Origin: an uncultured Clostridia bacterium
GTDB lineage: Bacteria > Bacillota > Clostridia > TANB77 > CAG-508
Assembly (NCBI GenBank): GCA_944392425.1
Contig: CALXWM010000002.1
Coordinates: 3,346 to 67,345, forward strand
Direction: 5' to 3'
DNA length: 64,000 bases
Under the pieces are notes generated by a model, which worked only from the letters and a program-made list of their open reading frames with translations, had not been told where the DNA came from and made no database searches. Numbering within the stretch: position 1 is the stretch's first letter; each line of letters begins with the position of its first letter. A program made the position numbers and the translations under genes. Of this stretch, positions 12,730-58,423 are shown one piece after another.

Positions 12730-12763
12730 AAACCGTGAAGCGAATGCAAAAGAACATATATTG
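12730..12763. repeat. 3' fragment of the GC-rich TIR element family
   Basis: aaaccgtgaagcgaatgcaaaagaacatatattg matches the end of the copy at 15083-15221 (gcgaaaccgtgaggcaaatgcggaagaatgtatattg). Confidence 0.6.
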
Positions 12764-12811
12764 TTGCGTAAATGAGAAAGGTAAGTATTAAAAAAGGAGT
12801 TGTACAATATA

Positions 12812-13432
12812 ATGAATTTCAGTGTTAACTGTAATAACAGTATCAGGCTTATTGGAAGTAAAAAAATATACATAGACCCATATGAAATAAAAGAAGAAAC
12901 ACACGATGCAGATTATATATTTTGCACTCATTCTCACTATGACCATTTTTCGCCAGAGGATATTAAAAAGGTTCTAAAAAGTGATACCAAAATTATAACT
13001 GTTCAAGATGCTAAACTTGATGCAGAAAAACTTGTTGGAAAAGAAAATGTTATATTAGTAGAACCAAATCAAAATTATACAATTGATGATATCAGTTTTT
13101 CCACAACTTATGCATTTAATGTGGATAAGCCTTTCCATCCTAAAGACAAGAGGTGGGTTGGATATATTATTGAGCTTGATGGCACAAAATATTACATTGC
13201 TGGAGATACAGATAATATCCCTGAGATAAGAAAGATTATAGCTGATGTAGCATTTTTACCAGTTGGCGGAACTTATACAATGAACTATAAAGAGGCAGCA
13301 GATTTAGCAAATGTATTAAATGTAAATACAGTAGTTCCAACTCATTATGGAAGTGTAGCAGGTAAAAAGGAAGATGGCGAGAATTTTAAAAGATTAGTAA
13401 AAAATAAAGAAGTTGTAGTTTTTGATATATAA
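12812..13432 (+). CDS. MBL-fold metallo-hydrolase
   Basis: HSHYDH motif. ATG 12812 is preferred over the track's TTG at 12800 because of its spacing from RBS AAGGAG. Confidence 0.75.
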   Translation: MNFSVNCNNSIRLIGSKKIYIDPYEIKEETHDADYIFCTHSHYDHFSPEDIKKVLKSDTKIITVQDAKLDAEKLVGKENVILVEPNQNYTIDDISFSTTYAFNVDKPFHPKDKRWVGYIIELDGTKYYIAGDTDNIPEIRKIIADVAFLPVGGTYTMNYKEAADLANVLNVNTVVPTHYGSVAGKKEDGENFKRLVKNKEVVVFDI

Positions 13433-13457
13433 AGATTATAGATGTGTTTATATAATA

Positions 13458-13505
13458 AAAAGACCCTTATAAAGAAAAGATTCTTTATAAGGGGTCGACT
13501 TTTTT
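13458..13505. terminator. Bidirectional hairpin terminator
   Basis: GACCCTTATAAAGAA / TTCTTTATAAGGGGTC stem, preceded by an A-run and followed by a T-run. Confidence 0.6.
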
Positions 13506-13761
13506 ATGGAGTTTTGCATTTGCATACCCAAAGCAGATGCCGTTTTCCAATGATCACTCTTGCATCAAGAAGAGTGTCTTGCAGATTATCCTTTGTAAGA
13601 GCCAATGGATTATACTCTGCAAGTATTTCACAATCATTGTGGTAGTATTTTTCGAGCACTACGTCATCATAGCGCTCACGAATAACATATTGAACTCTTG
13701 GGGATGCAGGAATGTCTGTGTAATATTCTACGTACCGCACAGGCATGTATGGACACTTCAT
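13504..13761 (-). CDS. Small hypothetical protein (85 aa)
   Basis: Strong RBS AAAGGAG lies 8 nt upstream of the ATG on the minus strand. It is preferred over the two overlapping plus-strand ORFs, which lack an RBS. Confidence 0.5.
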   Translation of the reverse strand: MKCPYMPVRYVEYYTDIPASPRVQYVIRERYDDVVLEKYYHNDCEILAEYNPLALTKDNLQDTLLDARVIIGKRHLLWVCKCKTP

Positions 13762-13961
13762 AAAAATTCTCCTTTCTGAAAATATATAAAGTCTACATAA
13801 TTATTATATCATTAAAATTAGATTAATTCAACTTTTTTTAATTCTCTCCTTTTTAGAATTTTACTCTTGTATATTCTTACTTATGCGTGATAAAATATTA
13901 TGCAAAGGTTGTAATTCTTTTCTAATTAAATTTATATCTTTAGAAAGGAAAGAGATTAAAT

Positions 13962-14033
13962 ATGGTTAAAGTTTTATTTGTATGTTTAGGAAATATATGT
14001 AGATCACCAATGGCTGAATTTATTATTGTATAG
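13962..14033 (+). pseudogene. 5' remnant of a low-molecular-weight protein-tyrosine phosphatase/ArsC-family gene (MVKVLFVCLGNICRSPMAEFIIV*)
   Basis: The canonical N-terminal CX5R(S) P-loop VCLGNICRSP is present. The frame stops after 23 codons, exactly where the 144-nt repeat begins. Confidence 0.55.
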
Positions 14034-14166
14034 GAAAAATCAAGTTTTTCCTATACAATAAAAGCATTGCACACAATTTTACATTTGTAAAATTGGCGCA
14101 CGAACAAAGACGCGGACGATGTAAATTTAAAAGTAGAACAAAGTTAAAGGAGCCCGCTTTTGTTCT
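14023..14166 (+). repeat. 144-nt structured repeat, copy A
   Basis: Identical to 48807-48950 except for 2 substitutions. Contains a 17-bp hairpin TTATTGTATAGGAAAAA/TTTTTCCTATACAATAA, the palindrome AATTTTACATTTGTAAAATT, and AGAACAAA...TTTGTTCT. Confidence 0.85.
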
Positions 14167-56392: not shown

Positions 56393-56437
56393 TCTATATA
56401 AAACGATAAATTCTTAAATATTATTTTATTTTTAGTT

Positions 56438-56466
56438 CCAATATATATTTTCCTCACATATATTGG
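56438..56466. repeat. Mini-hairpin resembling the bare termini of the GC-rich TIR element
   Basis: CCAATATAT-attttcctcac-ATATATTGG. Confidence 0.4.
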
Positions 56467-56656
56467 AGTGAGAAATAACTATTAATATAATACATTAAAA
56501 TGCCAAAATAGTCAAATATTTTAGCACTTTTCGAATGTAAATTTTGTGTGTATAAATTATATAAAAGTTTTAATAGAAGTTCTAAAACAATTTTACTACT
56601 AAATATTTACTAAAAAAATTTTAAATGGTATAATTTTAAGCAGAAAGGATGAAATT

Positions 56657-57493
56657 ATGATGAATACAAAAACAATTAGATACATAATATATGCTGTAAT
56701 TATAATATTTTGTGTTGTAGCAATTGGCTTAGGTGTATATGCACAATTTTTTACAAATGAGCCTATACAAGATGTGTATGGAAATGATATTTCAGCTGGA
56801 GGAAATATAATTACTCACCAAGATGTAAATCAAGCTTTTATAGATTTATTTACAAACGAATTTTATTCAAATTATAATGACACAAATATTACTAAAATAG
56901 ATGATACTAAAGAACTTGTATATACATTTTATGAAGACAATCAGAATGTAAGTGGAAAATATAGTATGAATATTCATATACCAGTTATAAATATACAAAG
57001 TGATGTTGTAACAGGATTTAATAACCTAACGCAAAGTATATTTGTAGACAAAATAAATTCAGTAATGGCAGGAACTGAAGTATATACAATTTATAACTTA
57101 GATTATATTGCTTATGTGAATAATAATCTATTGTCGGTTGCAATAAAAGCTACTATAAAAGAAGGAGATAATCCTCAAAGAGTGATAGTTCAAACATATA
57201 ATTATGACTTAGAAACAAACCAAGCTGTTACTTTAAAAGAAGTTTTAGAAGATAGAGATATTGATGAAACTGTTGTTGAAAATAGAATTAGAACTGTGGT
57301 ACAAAATGCAAGTAATGATGCAGACAAAATGGCTGAATCAGGCTATACAGTTTATCAAAGAAATGTAAATGATGAAATGTATCAAATAGATAATATTACA
57401 AACTTTATTGAAGGTCCAAATGGTGAATTGTATATAATATTTGCATATGGAAATAATAATTATACATCTGAAATGGATATTATACAAATTTAA
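56657..57493 (+). CDS. Membrane-anchored extracytoplasmic protein, unknown function
   Basis: N-terminal TM helix YIIYAVIIIFCVVAIGLGVYA. Promoter-like TTACTA-16-TGgTATAAT upstream. Confidence 0.55.
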   Translation: MMNTKTIRYIIYAVIIIFCVVAIGLGVYAQFFTNEPIQDVYGNDISAGGNIITHQDVNQAFIDLFTNEFYSNYNDTNITKIDDTKELVYTFYEDNQNVSGKYSMNIHIPVINIQSDVVTGFNNLTQSIFVDKINSVMAGTEVYTIYNLDYIAYVNNNLLSVAIKATIKEGDNPQRVIVQTYNYDLETNQAVTLKEVLEDRDIDETVVENRIRTVVQNASNDADKMAESGYTVYQRNVNDEMYQIDNITNFIEGPNGELYIIFAYGNNNYTSEMDIIQI

Positions 57494-57566
57494 TGTCATA
57501 TATTTGATATAAAAATATTAAATTACAATATAATAAGAAATAATATCTAAAAATTATAGAAATATA

Positions 57567-58262
57567 ATGGAGCAATATATGAAGAAAAAAGAATTTACTT
57601 TTCACAATATAATTTGGTACATGATTTTGTTTAGTATACTAGGTTTATTAATAGAGACTATTTATGGCTATGTTTCAACAGGAATATTGGAAAGTAGAAA
57701 AGGGCTTATTTTAGGCCCTTTCTGCCCAATATATGGCATTGGAGCGGCCTTTTTTATTGTATTACTTAGCGACTATAAAGAAAGCAAAGTTAAATTATTT
57801 ATTATGGGTGCAATTGCAGGAACTATTTTTGAATATATTTGCAGTTATATACTTCAAGTAATATATGAAAGTATGTTTTGGGATTATTCATATACAACAT
57901 ATCAAATAAATGGCAGAGTTTCGCTTACTTATACATTATTTTGGGGCATTTTAGCAGTTTTATTAATAAAATATATTAAACCACAATTTGATAAAGTAAT
58001 AGATAAAATACCAAAAAAGCCATGGGATAAAGTTATAACTATATTTTTAATAATAGATATACTTATAACAATTTTAGGAATAACCATATATATGAATAGG
58101 GCGGAAAAGAAATACAATAATGAAACATTTAATGAAAATGTACTAGATAAAATATTTAATGATAATATAATGTCATTTATATTTCCTAATTTAAGATTTA
58201 CAGATGAAGTTGGCAATTCAATAATGGTAAGAGATATACTAAATGAAGTTACAATTCAGTAA
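57567..58262 (+). CDS. Polytopic membrane protein of the 'putative ABC-transporter type IV' (PF06541-like) family
   Basis: ILGLLIETIYGY...GPFCPIYGIGA motif recalled for that family. About 5-6 TM segments. Confidence 0.5.
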   Translation: MEQYMKKKEFTFHNIIWYMILFSILGLLIETIYGYVSTGILESRKGLILGPFCPIYGIGAAFFIVLLSDYKESKVKLFIMGAIAGTIFEYICSYILQVIYESMFWDYSYTTYQINGRVSLTYTLFWGILAVLLIKYIKPQFDKVIDKIPKKPWDKVITIFLIIDILITILGITIYMNRAEKKYNNETFNENVLDKIFNDNIMSFIFPNLRFTDEVGNSIMVRDILNEVTIQ

Positions 58263-58283
58263 TATTTATTTATTTAAAAGTTT

Positions 58284-58423
58284 CAATACATATTCTAGAA
58301 CATTTCAGCGAACGAGAGCAGTTACAGCATTTGTGATTTGCAATATGGATTATCTGCGAAGTGGAGCGGGCAAGTTGGAGCGAATAGCGACCCGCGCGGC
58401 GAAATGTGAAGGAATATGTATTG
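58284..58423 (+). repeat. GC-rich TIR element (MITE-like), orientation A
   Basis: CAATACATATTCT ... GAATATGTATTG. Its reverse complement aligns almost base for base with 53171-53310. Confidence 0.85.

Follow-up and report, generated by a model that had tools for sequence, protein, structure and literature searches.

A 64,000-nt stretch of the genome of an uncultured Clostridia bacterium (GenBank assembly GCA_944392425.1, contig CALXWM010000002.1, positions 3,346 to 67,345; hereafter the window) carries six full copies of a GC-rich hairpin repeat, together with remnants of others. The sequence family is undescribed, and its behavior is shared with repeats known in other bacteria. Copies are gained and lost between strains, and the interior of the element inverts between strains. 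We interpret the family as non-autonomous, non-coding hairpin repeats that resemble MITEs (transposable elements of the miniature inverted-repeat type) and are functionally closest to the Correia elements and to the RUP, BOX, and SPRITE repeats, a reading to which we assign a probability of about 55%.

An initial annotation, made from the sequence alone, had listed six full copies, a fragment, and a small hairpin, and alignment and profile searches find all of them where it placed them. The six full copies align end to end, with similarity over the whole length rather than at the ends only and a mean column identity of 73%; a profile built from them recovers exactly the same six from the window (E = 1e-27 to 1e-42). 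They stand out from an AT-rich background, as had been claimed: G+C content is 0.42-0.50 in the elements and 0.46-0.58 in their interiors, against 0.23-0.33 in the flanks and 0.287 in the window. The window itself is a housekeeping region of an AT-rich, spore-forming Clostridium, with fusA-tuf, a BofC-like gene, holB, and POR genes, and a search of it for tRNA genes found none. The intergenic location noted for the first copies extends to the wider sample, where none of 72 copies lies inside an open reading frame (ORF).

The family is confined to one clade of about seven uncultured gut Clostridium/Clostridia species and to related gut metagenomes. An exact degenerate pattern of the 5' end was scanned against the GTDB representatives (one genome per species) and occurs at 54 places, all in seven metagenome-assembled genomes (MAGs) of uncultured Clostridium sp. 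or Clostridia bacterium, and at 18 further places in a metagenome collection. Two scans of viral contigs with this pattern gave no match, and plasmid and phage collections searched by BLAST with the composite unit described below gave none either. By exact-protein look-ups, the species of the window occurs in animal-gut metagenomes, those of chicken gut among them. The initial annotation had proposed a comparison with Rfam and a count of further copies. The Rfam 15 covariance models give no hit in the window at the gathering threshold and nothing but noise when one copy is searched at E <=10, and full-text literature searches for a described Clostridium repeat family returned nothing specific. 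Profile searches of about 0.6 Mb of fetched DNA (loci L001 onward) recover 114 complete copies (112-174 nt) as well as truncated ones. In many cases a MAG or metagenome contig breaks off within a core copy (for example L020, L029, L030, L036, L086, L087, and L103). Copy numbers read from MAGs are thus underestimates, and the family is a frequent cause of assembly breaks.

The core of the element is 112-174 nt long, has 42-50% GC against a background of about 29%, and folds into a Y shape: a closing stem plus two inner arms, which occur in short or long hairpin versions. The closing stem has 3 parts. P0 is 6-8 bp (AAAAGYNN/NNRCTTTT); P1 is 13 bp (CAATATATGTTCT/AGAATGTATATTG), with 98.5% of its cells paired; and P2 (CATTTC/GAAATG) lies beyond a purine-rich internal loop. 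Over 59 non-identical copies, 97% of the cells of a 25-pair consensus are paired. Double-sided changes occur at 12 of the 25 pairs, compared with 3.3 +/- 0.9 in shuffled alignments and 2-6 in slid controls, and folding z-scores range from -2 to -7. The compensated termini described earlier are present as reported, both as complementary pairs (CAAGAT/ATCTTG and CAATACATATTCT/GAATATGTATTG) and as G-T wobbles. On one strand, G-U cells outnumber A-C cells 135 to 9, and in 5 of the 6 window copies the forward strand is about 10 kcal/mol more stable than its complement; the G-U asymmetry is suggestive of a better fold of one strand.

Beyond the stem, T is found at +5/+6 in 43-46 of 57 copies, with mixed bases further on. 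A simple terminator scan does not flag the copies, since their loop exceeds the limit of the scan. Neither a kink-turn nor a promoter motif fits the internal loop or the arms consistently when these are inspected by eye, and searches found no conserved promoter at a fixed distance from the copies and no IHF-like site within the elements. The P1 3' arm of all copies, AGAAT(G/A)TATATT (for example window 58411-58423), resembles 12 central bases of the Firmicutes dif consensus (TAKAATRTATATTATGTWAACT). We do not regard P1 as a dif/Xer site: the match consists of 12 AT-rich bases without a XerD arm and may be due to chance.

Pairing does not stop at P1. At offsets 1-4 beyond it, the two sides of a copy form Watson-Crick pairs in 70-88% of 57 non-redundant copies, compared with 28-38% when the two sides are taken from different copies; the sequence at these offsets is variable, with a flank consensus of AAAAGYNN, core, NNRCTT. 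Most cores form the center of a larger palindrome, in which AT-rich arms of about 20 nt are followed by an outer inverted repeat. At least 3 unrelated outer types exist, namely F1 (GTTACWATTCACAG; fuller form GTTAC(A/T)ATTCACAG), F2 (GGGACGGTCCTTTT), and F3 (CAATAGGGACGCCC), in addition to locus-specific long palindromes; the outer F1 and F2 repeats measure 12-20 bp. Two units in the window display this architecture. At 58248-58466 (plus strand), the core at 58284-58423 has AT-rich arms and, outside them, the F1 inverted repeats GTTACAATTCAG (58248-58259) and ATGAATTGTAAC (58455-58466). At 31165-31388 (minus strand), the core at 31213-31348 has an AT-rich arm of about 20 nt on each side, and this whole is enclosed by F2 arms inverted relative to each other, CCGTTGGGGACGGTCCTTTTAGTAAAA (31165-31191) and TTTTACGAAAAGGACCGTCCC (31368-31388). 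The previously proposed size of 116-142 nt therefore holds for the core and not for the whole unit, as these 2 composites demonstrate.

Paralogues at unrelated loci have 35-45 nt beyond the core in common on both sides, and their similarity ends at the outer repeats; a flipped orthologue served as the positive control for this comparison. On the sequence evidence, the duplicated unit is shown to be a nested palindrome composite of about 200-230 nt, and P0 and the arms belong inside it and come from the donor copy. The initial annotation was right that pairing extends into copy-specific flanks, and wrong in taking these for flanking DNA, as they are the inner part of the composite. P0 is stable among orthologues, and its variants (AAGCTC, AAGCTT, AAATCA, AAATAC, AAGTTT, and AAGAC) recur across outer contexts. 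We largely reject the idea that the paired flanks were target palindromes before insertion, or were created by it, as paralogues share P0 and arms as far as the outer repeats. Since one core occupies the centers of 3 unrelated outer families, we infer that the core with P0 entered palindrome centers at least 3 times.

A second repeat family consists of small hairpins with the motif GGGACG(G/A)TCC, such as TTTTCAGTTGGGGACGATCCCAACTGAAAA with a T run behind it; it resembles intrinsic terminators and occurs at window 59763-59794, 31165-31191, 31368-31388, and around 62578. Inverted doublets of this hairpin are the outer F2 palindrome of some cores, and L070 has a doublet without a core. A third hairpin family, F3, with the form GTGTCAATA(A/G)GGG..CCC..TTGACAC, is present at window 25080-25108 and 53960-54027 (between pgsA and a clpC-like gene). 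F3 hairpins stand alone, in tandem (L011, L018, and L031), or as outer arms around cores.

Inversion is clearest at the pgsA locus, where the window copy (53171-53310, 140 nt, minus strand) lies between convergent bofC-like and pgsA genes and carries a perfect 20-bp inverted repeat, AAAGTACCAAGATACATTCT / AGAATGTATCTTGGTACTTT. When 13 orthologous sequences anchored on pgsA are compared in one common orientation, four of them (the window, L063, L077, and L078) carry the copy forward and the other 9 carry it reversed. Both forms have the same flanks and differ by an interior of about 114 nt that is exactly reverse-complemented except for two single-nucleotide polymorphisms in loops; the orientation switches inside the perfect 20-bp repeat. 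The orientation of this copy is not linked to the haplotype of a spacer 300 bp away, which implies either that inversion recurs or that strains recombine. Of 23 orthologous groups, 4 besides pgsA show both orientations, with inversions between MAGs at three to four loci. The breakpoints fall within P0 and P1 at pgsA, at the P0 edge in L034/L041, in the outer AT repeat in L026/L045, and in the F1 repeat in L042/L100; in the last two pairs the arms flip along with the core. Breakpoints in such different repeat layers favor flipping driven by homology or by hairpins over a dedicated invertase specific for P1.

Other copies keep one orientation. The fusA-tuf and 58284 copies show no inversion in 11 sequences each, and none was seen for the POR copy or for the copy at 15083. 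The first two of these have a perfect repeat that is shorter or broken by wobbles, and the flipping pgsA copy has the longest one (20 bp). The fusA-tuf copy (46108-46223, 116 nt, plus strand) is a short-subfamily core on the sense strand of the spacer, with P0 = ATAAGCTC/GAGCTTAA, and is fixed in 11 orthologous sequences; the 58284-58423 core has one orientation in 11 strains. The copy at 15083-15221 (139 nt, plus strand) starts 11 nt past the stop codon of a DNA-alkylation-repair gene (14308-15072), upstream of a giant GH94 gene; its innermost flank pairing, P0, is imperfect, and its orientation is constant in 3 strains. The copy at 38378-38519 (142 nt, minus strand) lies between SNF2 helicase and GidA/TrmFO-like genes, antisense to both, has P0 = AAAGTTC/GAACTT, and is oriented like its orthologue in L061.

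Copies also come and go. Usable polymorphisms came from exact-protein look-ups, while 3 empty-site candidates obtained by flank BLAST were mostly too diverged. Presence or absence in closely related strains, the comparison that had been suggested for defining insertion sites, does vary even where the neighboring proteins are identical, with 3 alleles at the POR locus and 4 states in the bofC-comEC spacer. At the POR locus, where the POR-gamma protein is identical, F2, arms, and core are all present in the window and in L066-L068, the F2 palindrome alone is present in L070, and neither F2 nor core is present in L065 and L069. The bofC-comEC spacer holds a 7-nt stub in the window, L076, L077, and L082; a full short-subfamily core at the exact nucleotide of the stub in L083 and L084; some 40 nt away, a long core that has an F1 arm in L078, L080, L081, and L063; and nothing in L079. 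The window stub (52409-52426, minus strand), absent from the initial annotation, consists of CAATATG between ATCTA and CTAGAT and lies at the comEC stop codon, which it contains. In the full-core allele (L083, about 2700-2830), ComEC has 818 residues versus 812.

Truncated copies, copies reduced to P1, and copies that have lost an arm are common, and solo ends arise by deletion at orthologous sites, as in L062 (full) versus L039 (remnant). The window contains 3 such remnants. The 34-nt solo 3' end at 12730-12763 (12730-12765 in our delimitation; plus strand; AAACCGTGAAGCGAATGCAAAAGAACATATATTG) is a weak profile match whose homology is clear by eye, with E 0.17 for the full profile and 0.0013 for an end-only profile. 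A degenerate solo 5' end at 29642-29680 (minus strand; CAATAGATGTTTAAAACATTTCTGCGAACGTAGCA) was found by the profile search and adds to the copies reported before. The mini-hairpin at 56438-56466 retains the outer parts of the terminal stem only (CAATATATAT..ATATATTG; its P0 is GTTC/GAG) and is a remnant of internal deletion. Ten other strains also have it, of which 3 carry CAATATATGTT, the exact 5' arm. The P1 AT repeats are both direct and inverted, so that slippage across the hairpin would leave stubs of this kind.

Two further observations concern derivative forms. Minimal forms consist of P0 with the two P1 arms set head to head, or with no more than a 9-14-nt loop, for example CAATATACATTCTAGAACATATATTG between AAAACCA and TGGTTTT, and are found at L062:5877-5902, L016:6368-6392, L038:1865-1878, and L033 about 3875-3900; they are either footprints of excision or deletion or the smallest members of the family. 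In addition, one and the same intergenic region can hold a different core subfamily in another MAG species (142/154 vs 125 nt; 158 vs 126 nt), as at L021:2502, L088:1392, L097:3911, and L017:3791, and at L052:1052 versus L014:2989 and L095:3388. Such differences suggest repeated use of a site, or replacement of the interior by exchange between copies.

Of 60 classifiable copies, 58 are downstream of at least one gene, and most begin 10-80 nt past a stop codon. Relative to co-directional neighbors, 19 are sense and 32 antisense; 7 more lie between convergent and 2 between divergent genes. Orientation relative to GC skew divides 27 to 43. Any orientation bias, relative to genes (19/32) or to the replication strand (27/43), is weak. 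Orientation that is random with regard to both genes and replication counts against a cis-acting RNA role for the host. The outer arms can also run into the ends of genes: the left F1 arm of the 58248-58466 unit encodes the last four codons and the stop codon of ORF 57567-58262 (window 58248-58262).

These features are those of a MITE in being small, non-coding, multi-copy, bounded by terminal inverted repeats, and polymorphic between related genomes; a direct target-site duplication of fixed length is lacking. The MITE-like reading of the initial annotation is borne out by the dispersal, the non-coding nature, the terminal inverted repeats, the polymorphism, the truncated and internally deleted derivatives, and the sharp outer bounds of the units, and not by a consistent target duplication or by an autonomous partner in the loci covered. 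As that annotation had stated, no direct duplication adjoins the core; the flanks are inverted rather than direct, and on that ground we reject them as target-site duplications. Its structured-hairpin reading is upheld in the compensatory changes beyond controls and the G-U ratio of 135 to 9, and is undercut by random orientation.

We propose that the core would have entered the centers of several pre-existing small palindromic repeats, as a selfish element mobilized in trans, and that only source copies that kept the fold would have left descendants. Copies would be lost by deletion across the AT repeat of the stem, leaving stubs and solo ends. Flips would be a passive result of closely spaced inverted repeats, through recombination or template switching during replication, and arm-to-arm exchange in the same process would keep both arms complementary. 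The host may tolerate the copies through their landing just downstream of genes, where the stem with its short T run could act as a bidirectional terminator or as a stabilizer of RNA 3' ends. The covariation has two possible sources in this proposal: selection for a fold needed by the mobilizing enzyme, or arm-to-arm correction during recombination or template switching, which is established for quasi-palindromes.

Several points weigh against this interpretation. At about 14 loci examined for target duplications at the outer (F1) ends, 2 are convincing (8/8 and 7/7), 2 are short, and none is seen at 8 or more. No transposase or recombinase domain is encoded in the 20 window ORFs scanned, in keeping with what was noted at first, and the roughly 0.6 Mb of targeted clade loci, which are not whole genomes, yielded neither an autonomous element nor a transposase or recombinase; none stands beside solo ends or between end pairs. 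Gain and loss cannot be told apart from the alleles, since central deletion of a palindrome mimics insertion. The inversions are read from assemblies rather than from reads; an assembly artefact is unlikely, as the 20-bp repeat is shorter than the usual final k-mers of assemblers. The strand asymmetry is suggestive rather than decisive, since it comes mostly from three inherited G-U positions. In quasi-palindromes, template-switch correction can yield compensatory changes without selection, and the fold may thus not be recognized by anything. A terminator function is no more than suggested: the stem is very stable, and the T run behind it is short.

Among the alternatives, the one that survives best, though we consider it unlikely, is a REPIN/RAYT-like or other single-stranded DNA system. 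Here the folded forward strand would be the substrate of an HUH (IS200/IS605-type) enzyme or of a tyrosine recombinase, which would excise or copy it from single-stranded DNA at the replication fork and insert it into the exposed hairpin tips of other palindromes. Such a system would account for the strand specificity of the structure, in which just one strand tolerates G-T (135 to 9), for the inconsistent target duplication, for cores at the exact center of 3 unrelated palindromic families and of unique palindromes, and for F2 arms in which a small hairpin unit forms REPIN-like inverted doublets. The resemblance of the P1 3' arm to dif also points this way, though it is limited to 12 AT-rich bases and has no XerD arm. 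The system would not account for the absence of a GTAG-type REP signature or for a replication-strand bias that is not strong (27 to 43), unlike that of IS200/IS605-type elements, and neither a RAYT nor a Y1 gene was seen in the fetched loci, which are not whole genomes.

The placement of the cores allows a related and bolder proposal, which we regard as doubtful: the core would be a mobile module that homes to the geometric centers (the hairpin tips) of palindromes already in place, directed by structure rather than sequence, and so builds 'Russian-doll' palindromes that flip and homogenize.

We also think it improbable that the family is a structured RNA with a host function, whether cis-acting (as a terminator, attenuator, or mRNA 3' stabilizer) or a small RNA, spread by duplication and selected copy by copy. 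Covariation above controls, a forward strand that folds better by about 10 kcal/mol in 5 of 6 window copies, the position of copies just past stop codons in an A-run, stem, T-run geometry, and the fixation of the fusA-tuf and 58284 copies in all 11-12 strains are what such an RNA would show. Yet orientation bears no relation to the flanking genes (19 copies sense, 32 antisense), the orthologous pgsA copy is found both ways round, copies are lost or truncated freely, and the family has no promoter at a fixed distance and no Rfam match and is restricted to one narrow clade.

A programmed inverton family, in which a dedicated recombinase would recognize the conserved 13-bp P1 and flip the asymmetric interior, toggling a strand-specific RNA structure between genes and giving phase-variable read-through, is very unlikely, even with both orientations at pgsA among strains that have identical neighboring proteins, uncoupled from haplotype, with a highly conserved P1 next to variable stem positions, and with a size and repeat length like those of the C. 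difficile RecV switches (PMC5903667), given that the AT arms of L042/L100 and L026/L045 flip with the core and place the exchange in outer repeats rather than at a fixed site, that flips were seen only where the perfect repeat is long and are absent in 11-12 strains for 3 other copies, that no recombinase gene was found nearby, and that a strong basal stem in both orientations predicts no obvious ON/OFF difference.

The reading as MITE-like hairpin repeats is best appreciated alongside known systems. The Correia elements of Neisseria (CREE/NEMIS) resemble the family in being non-coding, about 100-155 bp long, intergenic, bounded by terminal inverted repeats, and present in dozens to hundreds of copies, in forming long hairpins in transcripts, and in having size subtypes that arise by internal deletion. 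They belong to another phylum, share no sequence similarity with it, and differ in their TA duplication, 26-bp repeats, IHF site, and outward promoters; the present family differs from them in having a GC-rich core in an AT-rich genome, nested in other palindromes. The pneumococcal BOX, RUP, and SPRITE repeats and the bcr1 repeats of the Bacillus cereus group are, like this family, intergenic Firmicute repeats of 100-200 bp with RNA or DNA folds predicted to be stable and with modular sizes, and SPRITE is terminator-like. Compensatory changes are seen in bcr1 repeats. These repeats have no sequence relation to the family, RUP and bcr1 have defined target duplications, and RUP has a candidate parent insertion sequence. 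To our knowledge, no description has any of them systematically occupying the apex of a larger palindrome, or inverting. REP/REPIN (RAYT) sequences are likewise extragenic hairpins that form inverted doublets downstream of genes without target duplication, and their single-stranded fold is the presumed substrate. REP units, however, are 20-40 nt long, mostly proteobacterial, and marked by a GTAG-type head, whereas the family has a three-arm core of 112-174 nt plus arms; its multi-arm fold exceeds 110 nt, there is no GTAG head, and the F2 arms alone resemble hairpin doublets.

Invertible switches (Cdi1-7/RecV of C. difficile and Bacteroides invertons) share with the family intergenic segments of 100-200 bp that occur either way round, bounded by inverted repeats of 13-21 bp. 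Those switches exist in one or a few copies within 5' leaders and need a recombinase, with a fixed crossover; the family numbers dozens of copies, mostly at gene 3' ends, with variable breakpoints rather than one crossover position. The GC clusters of yeast mitochondria are likewise short, mobile, GC-rich palindromes scattered through intergenic DNA that is extremely rich in AT. They are distinguished from the family by their length of 30-50 bp, organellar location, unrelated sequence, and other target motifs. The termini do not fit the R''/R' boxes of integron attC sites (RYYYAAC ... GTTRRRY) and, unlike attC arrays, which stand in one orientation beside cassettes and an integrase, the copies are dispersed among housekeeping genes in both orientations. 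There is precedent elsewhere for parts of this behavior: in-place inversion has been reported for Correia elements (Elbeyioglu et al. 2017, cited in PMC10969869), BOX, RUP, and SPRITE repeats insert into one another (PMC10969869), and Cdi2 and Cdi5 are near-identical copies among the RecV switches (PMC5903667). Three features are unusual here: in a genome of 29% G+C, the three-arm core is GC-rich and shows compensatory variation; the core systematically tops other palindromes; and its orientation is naturally polymorphic.

Two neighborhoods of the copies merit description. The GH94 gene (15349-23628) is one ORF of 2759 amino acids with GH94 catalytic, supersandwich, and glucoamylase-like domains, similar to cyclic beta-1,2-glucan synthase; it is unusual for a gut Clostridium, and the core copy lies 127 nt upstream of it. 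Downstream of tuf, at window 47640-49170, gene content varies among strains with identical EF-Tu (L001-L010), which have either a pair of SocA/Panacea-domain genes (window 47857-48767), a fragment of AAA_14, an uncharacterized protein of 601 aa, or LRR_5 together with an HTH protein. This region is possibly a small variable island of toxin-antitoxin or defense genes.

The window thus reveals an undescribed family that is abundant, with about one copy per 10 kb, and that breaks MAG assemblies. The family alters the 3' ends of genes, as it supplies stop codons to ORF 57567-58262 and to comEC alleles. Since presence, size, and orientation vary, the elements serve as fine-grained strain markers. 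For metagenomic surveys of invertons, it means that small palindromic repeats can flip in natural populations without an obvious invertase and can give the appearance of phase variation. It also calls for caution in covariation-based RNA discovery, in that hairpin repeats can show compensatory changes without being RNA genes. Structure-directed homing, if true, could place orientation-switchable, strand-asymmetric RNA hairpins between genes throughout the genome.

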